In this document: positions 1 to 30,318 of the stretch, piece after piece
How positions within the stretch are numbered: position 1 is the stretch's first letter
Layout: the number at the start of each line of letters is the position of its first letter
Virus record (IMG/VR): IMGVR_UViG_3300037882_001468
Location: 1-36,194 of that record
Length of the DNA: 36,194 bases
Direction: 5' to 3' (one strand)
From: a virus
Taxonomy: Duplodnaviria > Caudoviricetes
Program-made: the position numbers and the translations under genes
The notes under the pieces: generated by a model
The model's database searches: none
Seen by the model: only the letters and a program-made list of their open reading frames with translations
What the model was told of the DNA's origin: nothing

Positions 1-99
1 GGCTCAACCACGCCTTTTAATATGCTCTTAATCACACGCTCTTGTTCAGGCAAAATAACGCCTTGCTCAATCAAGCCGCTAACATATGCGCCGATACTA
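1..99. repeat. 99-bp terminal overlap, left copy
   Basis: 1-99 is identical to 36096-36194. It lies inside a CDS whose frame continues across the junction, typical of an assembler k-mer overlap on a circular contig. Confidence 0.97.
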
Positions 100-3000
100 T
101 CTTCAAGGTTTAGGCTCAGGTTTTCAACAACCGCCTGTGTTTCTTTTAGCTTGCCATTCAGCGTTTGAACATATTTTGTTTTGATGTCATCGGCATTTCT
201 TTTAGAAAATTGCGATAGCCTTTGAAGGGCTGCGTCTTCATCATAATTAAAATCAGGGCGGGTAACTTTTTCAGCCACCATCGCTTTGATATAATCCCTT
301 TTGGCTTTAATCCGCATCAGCTTAACATCTTCGGCCGACATATCAGAAACTTTAACAATAAGCTTGTTATATTTTTTAGCTTTTTTCATAGCCTTTGTAG
401 CGTCTTCGCTCTCAGCACCAAAAAACTTTTTGCTTTGAATAATGCCGCGCACCCCTGCCACATAGCTAATCAAAGTTTGCATACTGTCTTCGTAATACTC
501 ATTAAATTCGGGGGTCACATAATCAACACCACGAGCTTTTGAATAAGATGGCCGTGCAAGCGTAATGCGGCTTGATGAAAAACCACGCAAATATTTGTTG
601 ATAAAGTCGGCTTTTTCTGGCTCTGTCAATAAATTCTTAGGGTCATGCTCTTTTAAAGCAAGCTGTATTGCGCCCCAGTTATCTTTTTTCTTTAACAGGT
701 TTAAGTAATCTAGCTTTTTATCAGCTTTTACTTGCCGTGGAAAATAGTCTTCAATATAGCCAAAGCCCAACCCAAGCGCCTCAGTTTCATTATAAAAGCC
801 ATCTAGCAATTCACGCACCCCCTGATATTCTTTTTCAATACCATACTTATTTACAAGATAATCAACCTTAACATTGTCACGGTTTTTAAGCGCAAGGTCA
901 AAAATCTTATAATCTTCGGGGGTCATTTTATCCGAAACAGCCTGAATAAATGGCTTAACAATTTTGTGGTCTTCCTGCGTGGTAATGCCAGTTTCAAACA
1001 CAAATTTACGCACAGCTATTTTTAAGCTCTTATGAATTTTGCCAAGGCGTGTTGATACAGGCACAAAAATATCGGCCGCACTTTCACCAGCACTTGACAA
1101 AACATTAAGCGCATCGGTTTTCAAGGTGTTTGGGGCCACATAATTAGCCACACGCTCATAATCGGCCTCAATATCACGCTCTTGCTGCGCCTGAAAAAGC
1201 TTTTCGCTTTTAACAAAATCGCTACCAAGCATACGGTCAAAAACATCGGAAACTTCGGGCGATATTGTCACATTCAAATTCTGTGCAGATTTATAAATAT
1301 CATTCAGCCATTGCTTAAACTTGTCAAACACGGTGTTTAATTCTGGCCGTGGTGATACGCCACTACGCAAACGTTGCTCAAAGCCACGAGCAAAACGCTC
1401 TTCCTGCGGCCGAGTAAAGCCATTGCCATCATTGCCAAGCCACTTTTTAATCTTTTCAAAATCCTGCTTAACGCGGGGTCGGTTAGTATTTTTTGCCACT
1501 TTTTCCATGTTGCGTAAAAATATGTGGGCGCTTTCATGCAGCAATGTGGAAGCATTTTTGCCAGCAAATAGCGTGATAATTGTCTGGCCATCTTTAAATT
1601 CAACCGAGCCACGAGCTTTGCCAGCTTTATCTTTTTGGTTTAATATGCGCGCATCGGCAGGGCTAAATGTGCCTTTGTTATTTACCGACTTAATTTGTGT
1701 TGGCTCAAAGGCTACATATTGTTTATCACCATTTGGCTGTGTGCCTATCACGCCATCATAACCATCTTTTATAATCTTTTTAATGCCCATACCACGCGGC
1801 ACATTTCTATCATTGGTAATTAATGGGTTTAAAATAGATAAATATCCACTAACTACTTTAACTTTAGAATTGCCAGATTGATAACCGCCAAACTGTTTTG
1901 CCGTAGTTTCATATTCACTAAAATAAATGCCAGCACCAAATTCGCCGCCACTTGACCTATTAAATGTTTCAAAATCAGCCTTAGTGCCATGATAAACCAC
2001 CATTGGTCGGCCTTGGTCATCAACCACCTTGCTATCACCAAACCAACGCCAGAAGTTTTGCAAGCCCTCTTGTGTGGCCGCAATAGGCTGGCCTTTATCG
2101 TTTGTTGTGGGGCGCACCACACCATCAACTTCAATGGTTGGCGCATCGTATGCCATGCCCTCAGCCTGAAAAAACAGCCCATCGTCAATTTCATCGGGGA
2201 TAATATCAGCAGGTTGCTGCAACGCATCGGCCGCCATAAATTCTGCAATTTCTGGTATGGTCATGCCATCGTTAATGCCCACGCGCGCATAATGGTCTAA
2301 GATTTGGTTTTGATAATCAATTTCGGCCGCAACGCTTTGCTCAATTTGCGCAGGATAAATTTTAGTGCCATTGGCCTCTTGCTCAATTAAATCCACTAAA
2401 TCATTGGCATTGACATCTTGCCCCTGCCCAAAATAGCCATCTTTTTCTAAAAGCCTAATCATGTCATCAACACTAACACCACCGGCCCGAACATAACGGC
2501 TCAGCATACCACGGCGGCCATCAAAGGCTTGGCGCAATTCACCCTGTTTCATCTCGCTTTTAGTTTTGCCACCATAGGCCAATGTGTCACGCTCTTGCTG
2601 TGTTAGCCCATCGGACAATCCACCATGGCGATAAATGGCCTGCAACAAAGTTTCGGGTGCTTTATCTAGCTTTAATGCTTTTTTAACCTGTGCAGGGTTG
2701 TTTCTATCAACCTGCATGGCCAATGAATTTTTAACACTAACAGCCTCAGCCACAAATCGCTTGGCGTTATCGCTAACCATTGGCTCATATTTGGCAACAA
2801 GATAATCGGCATCGCCAGTTTCAACCACACGAGGGGTAGGCGGGGACACCACACTACCATCTTTAATTTGCAGGCCTAAGCTATCCACCCACTCTTTTGG
2901 CGTAATGCCAAGGGCACGGCTAGAGGCATCGCTAACAGCGCCCCACAACTTGCTATTCTGCATGGCCACATCTTCGTTTTCACCTGCGGCAATAGCTTGC

Positions 3001-4385
3001 TCATAAACTTGTTTTTCAACCGCCGCAATGCCGCTTTGGTCGCGGCTGCTATCGTTAAACATTTTTGTGAATTGGTCTAAGGCCGCGCGGCTTTCTTCGT
3101 CTAAATCTTGGGCGCTTGCAATATCAACATCATTGTCAAAATCTTTCATAAGCTGCATGAATTTTGCGGCCGAGGCATCGTCTTTTGCAATGGGGGCAAG
3201 CTCTTTTTGAATAAATTCGTCCATGCCGCCTTTGGCAGATTGAAAGTTTTCAGCAGCATACTTGCCCATTTTATCAGCTTGGGCTTCATTAAAACCTTGT
3301 TTGGTGGCTTCATCTTTTACAAATGCGCCAACGGTTACGCTTGTTGTGCCGCCAATAATACCACCCAAAACGCCTTGGTAGAGAATATCTTCGGCTGTTT
3401 GCTGCATACTTTTATTGCGAATACCTGAAACTTGGGTAATTAGCTCTTCACCAGTTGCTTGCCCACTCTCTTGCATAAGTTCTGTAATGCCACCTGAAGC
3501 AAAACGGCTTACAGCACTGTTGGCTCTTAACCCTGACATAAAAGCTGGCAAACCCACAGCTTCAAGACCACCATCAACCATACCACCAAAAGTTGATATG
3601 TCTGAAGATGTAGCAGCGTCTTTAGTTTTTCGCCCCTCTTGATATAAATTTGATTTTTGTAACCCGCCAAAAAAAACCGCAGACATAGTAGTGCTTTTTG
3701 TCAAATAGGCTAAGCCAAGACTAGTTAATAGAGAGCCTGCGCCAGAGCTAAGGTCATAAATTTTTTGAGCCCCCCATTCGTTATCGCTTGGCCGCTCAGG
3801 CAATGCCTTTTTAACCCACTCTTGATTGCGTTCGCTAAGTTTTTTTGAACCTTCTAGCAAATCTTGATAATTTTCCATGCCAACAAATTTATCAATGTAA
3901 TGCTGTATGACTTTTACAGGGCGTTGGTTTATGGGATTTGTTACATATTCGCCCTCGCCCATGCGCTGTAAAGCAGTTTCTGCAATTTCAGTTTCAAGGC
4001 CTAAAAACGCTTGCGGTATTTGCCCAACAAGAAAGTTACCTACACCGCCAGCAGCAGCTTTTAGGCGGCCTACTGGCTTCATAGCCCAAAATTCTTTTAC
4101 TTCATCAACATCACGCTCAATAACAAAGCGAGTTTCATCGGCATTAAGCGTTTGCGGCACACTCAGCACACGCTTGCTTTTAGCGTCATAAACCGTGTTA
4201 TTTGGCGCATTGATGGTTTTAAGCTGCAATGGCTGCAAGATTTGTTGCGCGCGGCCTGTGTTGTCGCCTGCCGTTAATTCTGAAACACTCACTTGTGGGA
4301 TATTGCCATTGCTAGCGGCTGGCTTGGCGGCCCCCGCTTGGGTCATCTTTACTTCGCTTGGGGTTAAACTGCGCAAATCAACCAT
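1..4385 (-). CDS. Giant internal virion/DNA-ejection (polyvalent) protein, 5' part; joins 35090..36095 across the junction, ~1796 aa total
   Basis: ATG at 4385 overlaps the TAA of the upstream gene (TAATG) and reads MVDLRSLTPSEVKMTQ. Segments I translated by hand are open and in frame with the 35090..36169 ORF (36169 maps to position 74, same frame). Contains NFWRWFGDSKVVDDQGRPMVVYHGT, STLLHESAH and EERFARGFE..FKQWLNDIY..VFDRML, typical of epsilon15/BPP-1-type large ejection proteins. Confidence 0.9.
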   Translation of the reverse strand, partial: MVDLRSLTPSEVKMTQAGAAKPAASNGNIPQVSVSELTAGDNTGRAQQILQPLQLKTINAPNNTVYDAKSKRVLSVPQTLNADETRFVIERDVDEVKEFWAMKPVGRLKAAAGGVGNFLVGQIPQAFLGLETEIAETALQRMGEGEYVTNPINQRPVKVIQHYIDKFVGMENYQDLLEGSKKLSERNQEWVKKALPERPSDNEWGAQKIYDLSSGAGSLLTSLGLAYLTKSTTMSAVFFGGLQKSNLYQEGRKTKDAATSSDISTFGGMVDGGLEAVGLPAFMSGLRANSAVSRFASGGITELMQESGQATGEELITQVSGIRNKSMQQTAEDILYQGVLGGIIGGTTSVTVGAFVKDEATKQGFNEAQADKMGKYAAENFQSAKGGMDEFIQKELAPIAKDDASAAKFMQLMKDFDNDVDIASAQDLDEESRAALDQFTKMFNDSSRDQSGIAAVEKQVYEQAIAAGENEDVAMQNSKLWGAVSDASSRALGITPKEWVDSLGLQIKDGSVVSPPTPRVVETGDADYLVAKYEPMVSDNAKRFVAEAVSVKNSLAMQVDRNNPAQVKKALKLDKAPETLLQAIYRHGGLSDGLTQQERDTLAYGGKTKSEMKQGELRQAFDGRRGMLSRYVRAGGVSVDDMIRLLEKDGYFGQGQDVNANDLVDLIEQEANGTKIYPAQIEQSVAAEIDYQNQILDHYARVGINDGMTIPEIAEFMAADALQQPADIIPDEIDDGLFFQAEGMAYDAPTIEVDGVVRPTTNDKGQPIAATQEGLQNFWRWFGDSKVVDDQGRPMVVYHGTKADFETFNRSSGGEFGAGIYFSEYETTAKQFGGYQSGNSKVKVVSGYLSILNPLITNDRNVPRGMGIKKIIKDGYDGVIGTQPNGDKQYVAFEPTQIKSVNNKGTFSPADARILNQKDKAGKARGSVEFKDGQTIITLFAGKNASTLLHESAHIFLRNMEKVAKNTNRPRVKQDFEKIKKWLGNDGNGFTRPQEERFARGFEQRLRSGVSPRPELNTVFDKFKQWLNDIYKSAQNLNVTISPEVSDVFDRMLGSDFVKSEKLFQAQQERDIEADYERVANYVAPNTLKTDALNVLSSAGESAADIFVPVSTRLGKIHKSLKIAVRKFVFETGITTQEDHKIVKPFIQAVSDKMTPEDYKIFDLALKNRDNVKVDYLVNKYGIEKEYQGVRELLDGFYNETEALGLGFGYIEDYFPRQVKADKKLDYLNLLKKKDNWGAIQLALKEHDPKNLLTEPEKADFINKYLRGFSSSRITLARPSYSKARGVDYVTPEFNEYYEDSMQTLISYVAGVRGIIQSKKFFGAESEDATKAMKKAKKYNKLIVKVSDMSAEDVKLMRIKAKRDYIKAMVAEKVTRPDFNYDEDAALQRLSQFSKRNADDIKTKYVQTLNGKLKETQAVVENLSLNLEDSIGAYVSGLIEQGVILPEQERVIKSILKGVVE
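1240..1620 (-). other. Zincin-like HExxH metallopeptidase-like domain within the giant ejection protein
   Basis: RGSVEF..IITLF..NASTLLHESAH (HESAH at 1524-1538), followed by a downstream EE motif (QEERFARGF). Confidence 0.7.
1640..2150 (-). other. ADP-ribosyltransferase-like (ART-PolyVal type) domain within the giant ejection protein
   Basis: Manual translation gives VVYHGT (YHGT at 1983-1994), FGAGIYFS, YLSILNPL, GYDGVI and YVAFEPTQIKS-NNKGTF, the motif order of ART domains in polyvalent proteins. Confidence 0.8.
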
Positions 4386-9240: not shown

Positions 9241-9866
9241 TATTTTTTGCTGCTATTGCTAGGAAATGGTGTGTATCTTGATTGCTTATAAAGCGAATTG
9301 CTTATTCTAATAGGCCTGTTTTCTTGGGCGTTCATGCCGCTAATTGAGCCAATAACACGTGATACCATGACCTCTAGCTGGCCAGCCTTGGCAACATCTT
9401 GTGTCACGCTCATGCAGGCCTGTGAGGCCAGATAAAGCGAAAGGCCTTTGACAAACTCAGCGCTAAACTTTGAAACATCTTCAACATCGGCGATAAAGCG
9501 CAACGGCAGGCCATCGGCATATTCGGTGTTGGTTAAAATCATGTTGCTTTCAACTGTATAATCATTTTGCTTATCTTCAACATTGCCAATGCCTAGCACC
9601 TTCAAACAGTCGCTTGGATATTCATAGGCATAGGCAAAAGAATTGGCGTAACCCGCAGGCACAGCAGATAACGCAGCTACAATGCGGCGGCTAAGCGCAA
9701 AGTTAGGCATTAAAAGCTTTAATAAATACTGTCTTGAAATATCATACCAAAGAGCAAACGTAAGCTCTTTATCATTTTGCGGCGTGTCAATATTGGTAAT
9801 GGTGCCAAAATTGCCCATTAGACCGAGGGACATATTGCAAATAGTTATCTTTGATGAAACCGACAT
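9240..9866 (-). CDS. Tail adaptor / tail tubular protein A
   Basis: SKITICNMSLGLMG start, YDISR..L...PNFA and YAYEYPSDCLKV motifs typical of podovirus adaptors. Confidence 0.88.
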   Translation of the reverse strand: MSVSSKITICNMSLGLMGNFGTITNIDTPQNDKELTFALWYDISRQYLLKLLMPNFALSRRIVAALSAVPAGYANSFAYAYEYPSDCLKVLGIGNVEDKQNDYTVESNMILTNTEYADGLPLRFIADVEDVSKFSAEFVKGLSLYLASQACMSVTQDVAKAGQLEVMVSRVIGSISGMNAQENRPIRISNSLYKQSRYTPFPSNSSKK

Positions 9867-9890
9867 TGCGCCCCCTAATAGTTTTAACAG

Positions 9891-9917
9891 AAAAAAGGGG
9901 CGGCGCTAACCGCCCCC
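9891..9917 (-). terminator. Rho-independent terminator after the capsid/cement genes
   Basis: Minus strand GGGGCGG-TTAGCG-CCGCCCC followed by TTTTTT. Confidence 0.9.
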
Positions 9918-19123: not shown

Positions 19124-20335
19124 TTAAAATTCAGACAAATTCGCTACCACTAGCTCACGCATAAATGGCCCATTGCCATCAATTTGCAAATATGGGTTGT
19201 TCTCATCGCCCAAATCCCTCATAGGAGTTGCGCGACTAACAAGCATTTTAAGCCATCTTCCACCCTCTTGCTCTCGTGGACTTGATAGGTTATTAAGGCT
19301 AATTAAAATATGACAAGCTTTATTTAATCCATTGCCAGCAAAGACATCGCCCTGTTTATTGACCTGCGCTAACAATAAAACCCAAATCTTATTTTTTTTT
19401 GCAAAGTCAGCTAGGCCTTGAGCCACCTCTCGCAAGTGATATTCTTCAGTTTCCTTTGGGTTGCGGCCTTTTATGAGTTGCCAGTAATCAATAATAACCC
19501 CCTCAACTTTGTGTTTATGCACGGCTAAGGTCATTTTCTGCTGCAATTCTGTCCAAGTTATACCTGCTGCGTCTGAATAAATCACGTTATTTTTAATCAA
19601 ATCATAATTAGGCTCTTTAAGTTTTTTGTAATAAGTTTGGCTGTATCGGCCATGTTGGCGTATTTCAATATCGGCGGCGCCCATTTCCATTGCAACATAA
19701 AGATGTTTGTGCCCCATAAGGTTAAGATTGCCTGAAACTGTGCCAGCAAACATAGTTTTGCCTGATTTTTCTGGGCCAGCAAAGCAGTATAGTTTACCAC
19801 TTTCCATGCCACCGTCCATAACACTATCAAGGGTTTTAAAGCCTGTTGGCGTAACTTTGCCGCTAGTTTTGTTTAAAAAATACTGTTGAATAACCTCTTG
19901 TTGGCTTAAAAAATCATCAGCAGGTAGATAATCCATACTTTGTTTGGCAATAAAATCATATAATACGGTTGGCTCAGCCCCTTGAACGCTAGCCATAATT
20001 AAAAGCTCTTTTGCAATAGCTTGGGCTTTTCTCACATGATAACCATCAATCAAAGCTTTTTGGTAAAAACTAAAATTTGCCTTCAAGGGGTTAAAAACAA
20101 GGCAATCGGCAAGCGTTTCGCTAACCTCTTTAGTAGTTTGTCCAGTTTCTGCCGCAATCTGAGAAAAGACCCACGGTGCATTAATTTTACCATGAGAAAG
20201 CTTACTTTCAAAGGTTTTTTCAAAAAACAACCCATAAAAATCAAAGTGGTATTTTTTTAATTCTGTTTGATAAAACAGGTCATCATGCGTTAAAAGTATT
20301 GATAATACGCTATATTCAAGTTCTTGAGTGTCCAT
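19124..20335 (-). CDS. DnaB-like replicative helicase
   Basis: Walker A GPEKSGKT, AMEM, Walker B IIDYWQL and LLAQVN; follows the initiator gene. Confidence 0.9.
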   Translation of the reverse strand: MDTQELEYSVLSILLTHDDLFYQTELKKYHFDFYGLFFEKTFESKLSHGKINAPWVFSQIAAETGQTTKEVSETLADCLVFNPLKANFSFYQKALIDGYHVRKAQAIAKELLIMASVQGAEPTVLYDFIAKQSMDYLPADDFLSQQEVIQQYFLNKTSGKVTPTGFKTLDSVMDGGMESGKLYCFAGPEKSGKTMFAGTVSGNLNLMGHKHLYVAMEMGAADIEIRQHGRYSQTYYKKLKEPNYDLIKNNVIYSDAAGITWTELQQKMTLAVHKHKVEGVIIDYWQLIKGRNPKETEEYHLREVAQGLADFAKKNKIWVLLLAQVNKQGDVFAGNGLNKACHILISLNNLSSPREQEGGRWLKMLVSRATPMRDLGDENNPYLQIDGNGPFMRELVVANLSEF

Positions 20336-20943
20336 TATAGCCCTGCCAATGCATTGTTAGATTTAGTTTTAGGCGCTGTTGTCTTCTCGTTTTTAGCCCA
20401 TATTCTAAAAACTGCGTTATAATCCTTATAGGTTTTGCCCTTAGCTTTGCAGTAATCAAAAATCTTATCTCGCAGGACCAGCCTATCAATGTTAAAATTA
20501 TTAACATCAAGCCACGGCTGCAAATAATCCAAACTATCAAGTTTAAATTCATTTAGGCTTTTTTGCGGCCTATCCTCTACTCTACTCTTCTCTACTCTTC
20601 TCTTCTCTATTCTAGCACCGGTGCTAGCATCTGCTAGCAACTTGCTAGCATTAGAGCTAGCATCGTCTATTTTTAGCAAAAATCCAACATCAACTAGAGG
20701 CTGAAAGTCAGGTTTTACGCTAATGTGTGCCATCTTTTGAACGTAATCGGGGTTATCAGGTATGCAGCCATCGTGACGGCTTGCTAGCATCATGCATACA
20801 ATTGCTAGCAACTTGCTAGCATCGTCTAACATTACCCATGTTGAAGATGATATAAGCTCATAATGCAGTTTTATCCAAGGTGGCGACCTATGTTTATAAT
20901 GCTGGTATCTTTCCCATTTATCAATTTTATACGCATATTCCAT
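20335..20943 (-). CDS. Replication initiator (lambda O-like replisome organiser)
   Basis: WERYQHYK..PPWIKLH N-terminus, low-complexity EKRRVEKSRVE linker, C-terminal YKDYNAVFRIW; carries iterons; coupled to the helicase. Confidence 0.8.
   Translation of the reverse strand: MEYAYKIDKWERYQHYKHRSPPWIKLHYELISSSTWVMLDDASKLLAIVCMMLASRHDGCIPDNPDYVQKMAHISVKPDFQPLVDVGFLLKIDDASSNASKLLADASTGARIEKRRVEKSRVEDRPQKSLNEFKLDSLDYLQPWLDVNNFNIDRLVLRDKIFDYCKAKGKTYKDYNAVFRIWAKNEKTTAPKTKSNNALAGL
20575..20828. repeat. Iteron array / putative replication origin inside the initiator gene
   Basis: Palindrome TGCTAGCA at 20622, 20632, 20643, 20782, 20803 and 20814 (plus GCTAGCA at 20656). 20-bp direct repeat at 20632-20651 and 20803-20822. 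Adjacent pyrimidine/purine-asymmetric tract at 20575-20614. Confidence 0.8.
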
Positions 20944-21122
20944 TACTCACCTGCCTTACTAACAGCAGCCACAAGGCTGTAGCCCAAATCAAGGGCTTCC
21001 TTTTCTGTCATTTCAAGCCTAAATAATGGCAGGTCTTTTGTTTCAATTGTAATTAAATTAGGTTTAGCCGCAATGCTAAAGCCTGTAAATTGGGCTTCCC
21101 GCCCTTGGGTTTTGTGTATCAT
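20943..21122 (-). CDS. Small hypothetical protein, first gene of the replication operon (59 aa, not in track)
   Basis: MIHKTQGREAQF...VSKAGE*, GGAGG RBS, stop overlaps the initiator ATG (TAATG). Confidence 0.8.
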   Translation of the reverse strand: MIHKTQGREAQFTGFSIAAKPNLITIETKDLPLFRLEMTEKEALDLGYSLVAAVSKAGE

Positions 21123-21129
21123 GGTTTAG

Positions 21130-21156
21130 CCTCCAAGCTATTATCCTCCAAGCTAT
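21130..21156 (-). repeat. Tandem duplicated RBS, ATAGCTTGGAGG x2
   Basis: Plus-strand CCTCCAAGCTAT at 21130-21141 and 21145-21156. Confidence 0.9.
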
Positions 21157-21222
21157 AAAATTGGCGGCTTTGCCGCTCGGAGGGTTAGCAAATACAGACC
21201 GCTAAGTCTTACCGCCGCAGCT
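21157..21222 (-). ncRNA. Structured leader RNA of the leftward operon with anti-RBS element
   Basis: GGCGG/CCGCC outer stem, TTAGCGG/TTGCTAA hairpin, and CCTCCGAGC (21183-21175) complementary to GCTTGGAGG. The G-U pairs form only on the minus strand. Confidence 0.65.
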
Positions 21223-21252
21223 AATAAAGCACAAAACCCCCGCGCCTGTCAA
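21223..21252 (-). promoter_or_regulatory. Leftward promoter (replication operon)
   Basis: Perfect TTGACA at 21252-21247 and an AT-rich, non-consensus -10 (TTTATT) 18 bp downstream. Confidence 0.55.
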
Positions 21253-21253
21253 C

Positions 21254-21273
21254 TGGAATAATTGTTTATTCCA
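21254..21273. promoter_or_regulatory. Inverted-repeat operator between back-to-back -35 boxes
   Basis: TGGAATAA-TTGT-TTATTCCA, perfect 8-bp arms. Confidence 0.6.
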
Positions 21274-21287
21274 CCAATAAAAGGGTA

Positions 21288-21316
21288 TTGACATGACATT
21301 AAAAAGGAAACAAGCT
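21288..21316 (+). promoter_or_regulatory. Rightward promoter for a putative small RNA
   Basis: TTGACA at 21288-21293 with a weak -10 (CAAGCT/GCTAGT); followed by non-coding structured sequence. Confidence 0.5.
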
Positions 21317-21319
21317 AGT

Positions 21320-21430
21320 TTTAGGCTAAATTATCCTTGGTGGGCGCGCCAGCCGCCCAAGCACACTAAATCGGTATGCAGTATTTAGCCTAGTTTCATA
21401 GCCTGTAAAAATACCGATAAGCTGGCACTT
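21320..21430 (+). ncRNA. Putative two-conformation small antisense RNA
   Basis: No ORF. Helices: 21322-31/21383-92 (10 bp), 21341-46/21354-59, 21370-77/21411-18 (8 bp) and 21348-53/21421-26 (6 bp). Confidence 0.6.
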
Positions 21431-21519
21431 TACCCGATAATATTGTAAAATAAATCAATTTTCTTTTTAATAAAACCAATAGCTTAAATAGTTTTTTCTG
21501 CTAAGTCTAAAAATAACGC

Positions 21520-21548
21520 TTGACAGTCTTTTATAATACCTTTATAAT
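21520..21548 (+). promoter_or_regulatory. Consensus sigma70 early promoter
   Basis: TTGACA-N17-TATAAT, perfect consensus. Confidence 0.92.
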
Positions 21549-21592
21549 ACCTATATAAGAAGAAAAAAACCACTAAACAAAAGGATTACAAG

Positions 21593-21718
21593 ATGCGCAC
21601 AATTGAAACACAATTTACAACCGAAGAAGAATGTGAAGCCTACGCAGCCGCCGAGGGTATGGTTATTATCATGCTTAGCCAAGCAAGTGGCGGCACTTTT
21701 GACATGACAGTAATTTAA
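21593..21718 (+). CDS. Small acidic early protein (41 aa, not in track)
   Basis: MRTIETQFTTEEECEAYAAAEGMVIIMLSQASGGTFDMTVI*, AAGGA RBS, first ORF after the promoter. Confidence 0.75.
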   Translation: MRTIETQFTTEEECEAYAAAEGMVIIMLSQASGGTFDMTVI

Positions 21719-21729
21719 GGGGGTTGGCT

Positions 21730-21945
21730 ATGCACGGCAAATTCAAAGACATTGAGCAGCAAATTTTAACCTACCACGCCGACTGCAAAAAATTAGCGCG
21801 CGGCCGCCAAGGTTTAAGTTTTTCAGACCAAGTGCAGCGCCAGCGCAACCACATAGAAAGCCTAATCAGTGGCCTAAACGAGCCGACATCGCAGAAACTT
21901 TTAACCAACGCACTAAACAAGGGGTTACAGCTATGGACACGATAA
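21730..21945 (+). CDS. Hypothetical early protein
   Basis: ATG at 21730 after an AAGGGGG RBS. Confidence 0.7.
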   Translation: MHGKFKDIEQQILTYHADCKKLARGRQGLSFSDQVQRQRNHIESLISGLNEPTSQKLLTNALNKGLQLWTR

Positions 21946-25315: not shown

Positions 25316-25651
25316 ATGTCAAATCCATTTGAAAAAGCTGAGCAGATTATTAACAAAGAAGTTGAACGCCAACAGCGAGAACCAGAACTTTTTAACCGTA
25401 TGCATGGCACAGAAAAGGCACCCGATGCAGGCGCGCGCCTAAAGCTTTTGATTGAACGCATTGAACGCTTAGAAGAGGAAAAAGCAGCCATTGCCGATGA
25501 TATTAAGGAGGTTTATGGCGAAGGCAAAAGCGCAGGGTTTGACCCCAAAATTATGCGACAAATTGTGCGCTTGCGCAAGCTGGCCACCGACCAACGCCGC
25601 GAACAAGAAGAGCTGGTTGAACTTTATAAATCTGCATTAGGCATGGTGTAA
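25316..25651 (+). CDS. gapR: GapR/DUF2312 (UPF0335) nucleoid-associated protein
   Basis: LKLLIERIERLEEEKAAIADDIKEVYGEGKSAGFDPKIMRQIVRLRK..RREQEELVELYKSALGM. Confidence 0.92.
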   Translation: MSNPFEKAEQIINKEVERQQREPELFNRMHGTEKAPDAGARLKLLIERIERLEEEKAAIADDIKEVYGEGKSAGFDPKIMRQIVRLRKLATDQRREQEELVELYKSALGMV

Positions 25652-30090: not shown

Positions 30091-30318
30091 ATGAAACCCA
30101 CACCAGCACAATTAAAAATCACCAAAGCCCAATCAGATGTTTTTGAAATTCTGAAAAAGCGAGAGCGCAAAGGCCTTACATCAACTGCCAGCGACATATC
30201 GGCAGAATGGGGCAATCGCTCAAAGTGCTATGTTTATCGCGTGGTGCAAGTGCTAGTTGATGCGCGCCTTGTTGAGCGCTATTCGCGCCGCTATTACAAA
30301 GTCAATTTACAAACTTGA
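30091..30318 (+). CDS. LexA-N-like winged-helix DNA-binding protein (no peptidase domain)
   Basis: TKAQSDVFEIL..STASDISAEWGNRSKCYVYRVVQVLVDARLVER. Confidence 0.7.
   Translation: MKPTPAQLKITKAQSDVFEILKKRERKGLTSTASDISAEWGNRSKCYVYRVVQVLVDARLVERYSRRYYKVNLQT

Follow-up and report, generated by a model that had tools for sequence, protein, structure and literature searches.

The divergent early region and the replication operon

The window, that is, the whole stretch of 36,194 nucleotides analyzed here, is a complete 36-kb phage record with direct terminal repeats at its ends, and its gene content includes podovirus-type tail genes, a terminase, a DnaB-like helicase and a replication protein. A GapR-like DNA-binding gene at 25316-25651 (plus strand; E = 1e-31) suggests an alphaproteobacterial host. 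No tyrosine integrase, resolvase or HTH_3 repressor was detected in the window; a winged-helix gene with a weak match lies at 30091, and in positions 1-4300 none of the 13 ORFs scanned matched a PHROG. The leader studied here sits in a divergent early region, with a plus-strand promoter on one side and the minus-strand operon of ORF59, initiator and helicase on the other. A perfect-consensus promoter, TTGACA-17-TATAAT, is located at 21520-21551 on the plus strand (the promoter itself at 21520-48) and overlaps the tandem 11-nt repeat TTTATAATACC.

ORF59 (20943..21122, minus strand) encodes an orphan small protein and is coupled to the replication initiator (20335..20943, minus strand; phrog_26426, E = 6e-11), which is itself coupled to the DnaB-like helicase (19124..20335, minus strand; phrog_19, E = 2e-37); the initial annotation had proposed this coupling, and both gene junctions are TAATG overlaps. 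The codon bias of ORF59 is coding-like (0.32 in frame versus 0.03 and -0.09 in the other frames), and four strands and a helix are predicted for its product (model pLDDT 72). Searches for relatives of ORF59 found none, one of them returning two long proteins with 7-10 repeated partial matches, the structure searches gave no clear match (best Z of 6.2 in the fold search, nothing under E 0.5 with Foldseek), and Atlas matches were under 0.9. An RNA-binding role for ORF59 is unsupported because a profile of seven similar-looking small ORFs misses it (E = 5.7). The initiator gene contains TGCTAGCA iterons at 20622, 20632, 20643, 20782, 20803 and 20814, in two clusters (20613-20659 and 20782-20821), which are likely to be the origin. 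Three or more copies of GCTAGC are present within the first 450 nt of the initiator gene in 114 of 146 relatives, and the 300 nt upstream contain none in 134 of 146.

The leader and the unit upstream of it

The anti-SD CCTCCGAGC (21183-21175, minus strand) pairs 9/9 with both copies of GCTTGGAGG, and the positions that the initial annotation gave for this pairing were all correct when re-checked on the minus strand. The genome has exactly two copies of the target, and the minus strand has a single 9/9 partner for it, with no other 9/9 complement found there that might act as a separate blocker; when the bases of the 66-nt leader were shuffled 200,000 times, 429 shuffles (0.2%) contained such a partner. 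Two features had been overlooked: a three-way junction is predicted (21163..21216, minus strand), with the anti-SD as one of its loops, and the second target lies in a small hairpin over the SD. The junction, which is the minimum-energy fold of 21217-21157 (-17.5 kcal/mol) and agrees with a descriptor parse, comprises P1 (21216-11/21168-63), P2 (21209-05/21200-196, loop UAGC) and P3 (21192-87/21174-69), with the anti-SD held at 21183-21175 in the P3 loop AACCCUCCGAGC (21175..21186, minus strand).

The first copy of GCTTGGAGG, T1 (21145..21153, minus strand), follows P1 by 9 nt and would be the spare target, or decoy. The second, T2 (21138-30), includes the SD GGAGG 7 nt before the ATG and is embedded in hairpin P4 (UAGCU/GGCUA, -3.8 kcal/mol), T2 and P4 together occupying 21127..21140 on the minus strand. 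Duplex energies of the anti-SD are -16.9 kcal/mol with T1 and -16.1 kcal/mol with T2, and in pseudoknot-free folding the loop pairs with T1 at 0.63-0.76 versus 0.20-0.36 with T2; in ViennaRNA, a program unable to form pseudoknots, P1 and P3 are lost from the fold as soon as the sequence includes T1. The earlier statement that only the second copy is spaced to an ATG stands insofar as copy 1 has no ATG, but the GGAGG of copy 1 is 8 nt from a TTG that opens a 5-codon frame, the stop of which falls in the ATGA over the ORF59 start. A palindrome, TTTAGC-N6-GCTAAA, at 21065-21078 inside ORF59 resembles the P4 arms.

The overall stability of the leader is ordinary compared with shuffles (z = 0.04 for 21222-21100, -0.75 for 21217-21157 and -1.47 for 21217-21120). 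The probability of P1 is 0.5-0.6 if +1 is at 21219-21217 and 0.22 if it is at 21222. A putative leader promoter recognized by sequence (21223..21252, minus strand; TTGACA at 21252-47, 18 nt, TG-C-TTTATT at 21228-23) has a predicted +1 at about 21216, where P1 begins; the -11 A is missing, the -10 is poor and the promoter scan did not call it. The leaders of relatives carry TANNNT 2-10 nt before P1 in 8 of 16 cases. A consensus scan of 20800-21800 found no antisense (plus-strand) promoter covering the leader.

The initial annotation had also described mutually exclusive helices, and the positions of GGCGG (21216-12)/CCGCC (21167-63) and of the hairpin GCGGC-AAA-GCCGC were confirmed on the minus strand. 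The alternative hairpin (21176-64), followed by the weak U tract CAATTTTATA (together 21154..21176, minus strand), might provide the 3' end of a short form lacking T1. It is a terminator-like scan match of a kind found twice against 1.2 expected, its probability in a short RNA is 0.2-0.4, and two A precede the four U. The likeness to an attenuator seen in the initial annotation found little support: the hairpin reaches -12.0 kcal/mol against -17.5 kcal/mol for the junction, its U tract is weak, and a run of four U occupies this place in only 4 of 78 members of the RNA family discussed below. Two further pairings were noticed. The P2 tip could pair with GCUAA 3' of T2 in the window, a pairing absent by eye from three other leaders sharing the tip (L080, L233 and L517). 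In addition, a 10-bp perfect pair, GGGUUUUGUG/CACAAAACCC (21239-21230 with 21116-21107, minus strand), has two others of its kind within 900 nt and may be due to chance; in a read-through transcript it would enclose the leader and the ORF59 start, and it is present in the 337-nt fold.

Lying 100-200 nt upstream of the leader and likewise overlooked initially is a C4/CI-like unit (21298..21470, minus strand), with a weak putative promoter (21470-42), a 5' hairpin (21431-08), a junction (21406-21310) and a U-rich tail (21309-21298). The 5' hairpin contains the boxes GCCAGC (21426-21) and AUCGG (21418-14), and the junction arms match both in order, an arrangement seen in 3 of 300,000 shuffles, or in 455 under a looser rule, both figures being post hoc. 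The junction is more stable than shuffles (z = -2.73; 0 of 200 shuffles as stable), and once transcription has proceeded beyond about 21315 the predicted fold switches, box-loop pairing giving way to the closing stem. Of 480 genome windows scored, that with the unit ranks first, and none of 149 upstream regions of relatives reaches its score. RF01695 gave no match in the window, and a homolog search by pattern returned at least 105 distinct matches; among the matches listed, five had both hairpins and none was convincing. No second, downstream box pair was found, the genome scan having given a box pair at 21426 only (minus strand). As described in the available parts of PMC4825925 and PMC5320573, the P4 CI and P1/P7 C4 RNAs are small branched leader RNAs that silence replication or antirepressor genes by loop-target pairing, which in the case of C4 partly occludes the RBS. 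The P4 seqA-CI/C4 layout set out there resembles the upstream unit (21431-21298), with its two loops and upstream boxes. Two loops matching adjacent upstream boxes are found in 21431-21310 and not in the leader, which, unlike P4 CI and C4, has one loop and two downstream targets.

Relation of the leader to int-alpA RNA

The leader resembles int-alpA RNA (RF02996; Rfam type 'Gene; sRNA'), which was reportedly described by Weinberg et al. in 2017. We found no function for int-alpA in the literature searched, where its mentions are a table entry or a use in gene order; the name does not occur in the available part of the main text of PMC5737381, the supplement of which may already note the second target. 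The Rfam model of int-alpA stops at T1.

We collected 206 loci around relatives of the initiator. Several contain short leaders in which a stem closes off two hairpins and one loop matches the SD region. On ten such loci, RF02996 matched L029 and L080 above the cut-off and L119 below it, and 20 related loci scanned with Rfam at the gathering cut-off gave no match. In total, 156 int-alpA-type leaders were gathered, 129 of them distinct; 123 were parsed and 121 remained after duplicate removal. Two downstream loop sites of at least 5 bp are present in 78 of the 121, as compared with 10% when loops are swapped and 8% when the DNA is shuffled, and at 6 bp in 26 of the 121 versus 1%; these counts are of sequences, not independent events, and include as misses some loops that were misparsed. 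When a subset was picked by a pattern using neither loop nor targets, twin sites were found in 49 of 86 versus 7%. The family contains 103 different loops and, among the 78, 52 different target cores, and with such diversity the match between loop and target amounts to covariation and not to a plain anti-SD. Covariation was also seen in P1-P3, in an alignment that had been fitted to that structure. Where one phage has two leader copies, the loops differ (5 of 5 genomes), and a loop matches the targets of the other copy in 2 of 10 directions versus 7 of 10 for its own.

Among the 75 members with both sites and a start codon, the median spacings are 8, 7 and 6 nt (9, 6 and 7 nt in the window leader), T2 overlaps an SD-like word in 61, and a P4 hairpin surrounds T2 in 55, compared with 43% when the linker is shuffled, and T1 in 17. 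T1 is longer than T2 in 38 members and shorter in 14. The decoy idea of the initial annotation, with a nearer spare target and a farther target at the SD, thus describes a design that is family-wide and covarying (78 of 121 leaders), the nearer site being more often the stronger (38 versus 14, n = 75). The genes that follow the members differ widely, and many look nuclease-like by eye. A palindrome of at least 4 nt occupies the P2 tip in 57 of 116 members and is not found in the window leader.

By sequence models, the leader falls outside this family. RF02996 gave no match to it at E up to 10, let alone one reaching the gathering cut-off of 35.8 bits, the wider models R1 and R2 (built without the window) left it undetected, and Rfam scans of the window produced no real match. 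The junction words CUAG, GAAAA and CUG of the int-alpA consensus are absent; unlike the family, with its CUAG, GAAAA and CU and its medians of 6 for the loop and 5 for the duplexes, the leader has a 12-nt loop and 9-bp duplexes. The layout is nevertheless shared: a predicted P1[P2,P3] three-way junction with P1 enclosing P2 and P3, a P3 loop that can pair with two sites downstream, of which the second lies at the SD and within a hairpin, similar spacings and a position before this initiator family. The UUAGCG tip of P2 is common to the leader and those of L080, L233, L382 and L517. With a twin-target descriptor, which was written after the leader had been seen and recovers 55 of 121 canonical members, the leader was the only match among 472 starts in the genome (score 18), and the best score in 12,680 starts of related loci was 15.

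In the 182 of 206 loci searched, R1 found leaders directly before the initiator in L029, L055, L057, L080, L119 and L131, those in L055 and L119 being weak (E = 0.6-0.7), and in L069-L071 before a 73-76 aa ORF overlapping the initiator, the same order as in the window. Such matches before the initiator or a coupled ORF amount to 9 of 182 loci, and most initiator relatives are without such a leader. R2 added L079 and recovered 0 of 10 other divergent leaders tried, and in L072, the helicase of which is by far the closest to that of the window (E = 2e-44), the initiator follows a leader in which twin targets can be read by eye. The top match of both R1 and R2 in the window is a GC hairpin with a U run at 9860-9917 (minus strand), between virion genes, that resembles an ordinary terminator.

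Six initiator relatives (L035, L043, L062, L130, L145 and L154) have junction leaders before the initiator in which a 7-9 nt loop matches a single target set in an SD hairpin; R2 misses them. In L002 (2860-2990), L034 and L040, this position is taken by leaders of other types, which have self-matching boxes, and in L001 (2822-2977) a small gene that is ribbon-helix-helix-like by eye replaces the leader and ORF59. L152 (139-405) resembles the window, with a junction leader, a 12-nt loop and then a 57-aa ORF coupled to the initiator, the protein similarity being weak (E = 0.41).

Comparison of the leader and ORF59 with the 206 loci by blastn/nhmmer gave nothing, window-shaped patterns in IMG/VR matched 26, 29, 85 and 0 stretches, none of which proved to be a homolog when inspected, and BLAST of the region against named phages returned chance matches only. 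Because no close homolog was found, covariation is not demonstrable for the leader itself, and a MAFFT alignment of divergent leaders was too poor for model building. The leader would seem to work like int-alpA yet falls outside the family by sequence, and it may be a distant form. We are highly confident that its architecture is regulatory-looking, that of an int-alpA-like variant which has diverged and which stands in tandem with the C4/CI-like unit. It keeps the switch logic and drops the conserved junction words, which separates what a switch needs from what the family has inherited.

How the leader may act

The recurrence of the same design with different letters in a catalogued, unexplained RNA family makes a protein-free translation switch likely, and we assign a probability of roughly 0.55 to the reading that the leader is a translation switch of the replication operon with T1 as its decoy. 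Since T1 is made first and is usually the stronger partner, the loop likely pairs with T1 in cis. During transcription, the loop would form a pseudoknot with T1, using up the loop of the mRNA itself, and the SD would be left in the weak P4 hairpin (-3.8 kcal/mol), which ribosomes could open; ORF59 would then be made, followed through coupling by the initiator and the helicase. With a loop bound to T2, the entire GGAGG would be covered, and ORF59, initiator and helicase would be shut off. In the IncI/IncB plasmids, the initiator gene repZ is gated by a pseudoknot between a loop and the RBS region together with translational coupling, the pseudoknot activating and a countertranscript blocking. 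The leader resembles repZ in the loop-to-RBS-region pairing and the coupling, and differs from it in having two targets and in that the consensus scan of 20800-21800 found no countertranscript promoter.

The least certain step is the source of the loop that captures T2, which we tentatively suggest comes in trans from a short leader form ending between P1 and T1. This form would accumulate with genome copy number and time, and would provide repressor-free negative feedback on replication. For such a step speak the terminator-like hairpin and U tract, which fall exactly between P1 and T1, the high diversity of loops across the family, and the precedent of the Gifsy-1 RNA IsrK, where the short isoform of a leader acts on its own long mRNA (PMC4825925, available part); against it, four U in a row at that place are found in 4 of 78 members, the junction outcompetes the hairpin, and IsrK, in the same account, activates and does not repress (PMC4825925). 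IsrK resembles the leader in combining a structured leader, a small ORF and a translationally coupled downstream gene, and differs in its proven terminator, again according to the part of PMC4825925 available; Rfam gave no match for the leader.

A switch acting in cis only, as the initial annotation had it, is rather unlikely in our judgment. A protein, a ligand or another RNA would displace the loop from T1 or remodel the junction, and the same loop would move to T2. The near-equal energies of two 9/9 pairings suit this idea, as do the junction words kept by canonical members, which could bind a factor, and the own-match of 7 of 10 versus the cross-match of 2 of 10 between copies in the same phage, which fits self-contained units. 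However, no trigger was found: the minus strand has no other 9/9 complement, an antisense promoter was not detected, the window leader is without the junction words, and the bulge CCAAG of the upstream unit matches the targets over just 5 contiguous bp. Less probable still is an unregulated rheostat, in which the loop alternates between T1 and T2 and holds the rate of initiator synthesis constant and low. The predicted T2 occupancy of 0.20-0.36 at equilibrium, the variety of genes behind family members (many nuclease-like by eye) and the six initiator relatives with one target are consistent with it; a junction is unneeded for a fixed rate, however, and 52 different target cores would be left unexplained.

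The leader peptides repY and tap of plasmids are a model for coupling through a short upstream frame, and the GGAGG of copy 1, followed after 8 nt by TTG and by a stop in ATGA, could be the real SD of a 5-codon frame that starts with UUG and has its stop in an overlap with the ORF59 start. We consider this very improbable, as such a frame is present in 0 of 53 family members and follows from the 15-nt repeat period. We give next to no credence to the repeats being TAGC-N6-GCTA palindromes bound by the initiator for autorepression: all four exact sites of the genome lie within 20613-21140, but the iteron core is GCTAGC (7 in the initiator gene, 0 in 20944-21600), the origin palindromes arise from neighboring iterons, the leader site is hairpin P4, and the anti-SD is left unexplained. 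Equally implausible is chance, that is, a recent 15-nt RBS duplication beside a GC-rich leader; the ordinary folding energy and the lack of a model match or homolog agree with it, but the match alone has a frequency of 0.2%, it also sits in a loop with family spacings, and the descriptor score exceeds those of 12,680 control starts.

As regards the leader as a switch with a decoy, the identical 9-bp targets make the idea directly testable with few reporter mutants. If the action in trans is true, the leader would be a translational repressor both compact and programmable, and would open a way to the repressor-free control of replication in phages. If its own poor -10 makes it dependent on read-through, the two RNA units would act in series. 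We speculate, as a rather doubtful extension, that two RNA switches in series replace a lambdoid repressor gene, namely a transcription gate resembling C4/CI and an antisense leader that disarms itself, its decoy T1 silencing the loop of the mRNA so that only short copies repress in trans. If this were true, the loop would be a lineage-specific address, copy number would be controlled and immunity groups set up with no protein involved, and the entire int-alpA family would gain a function.
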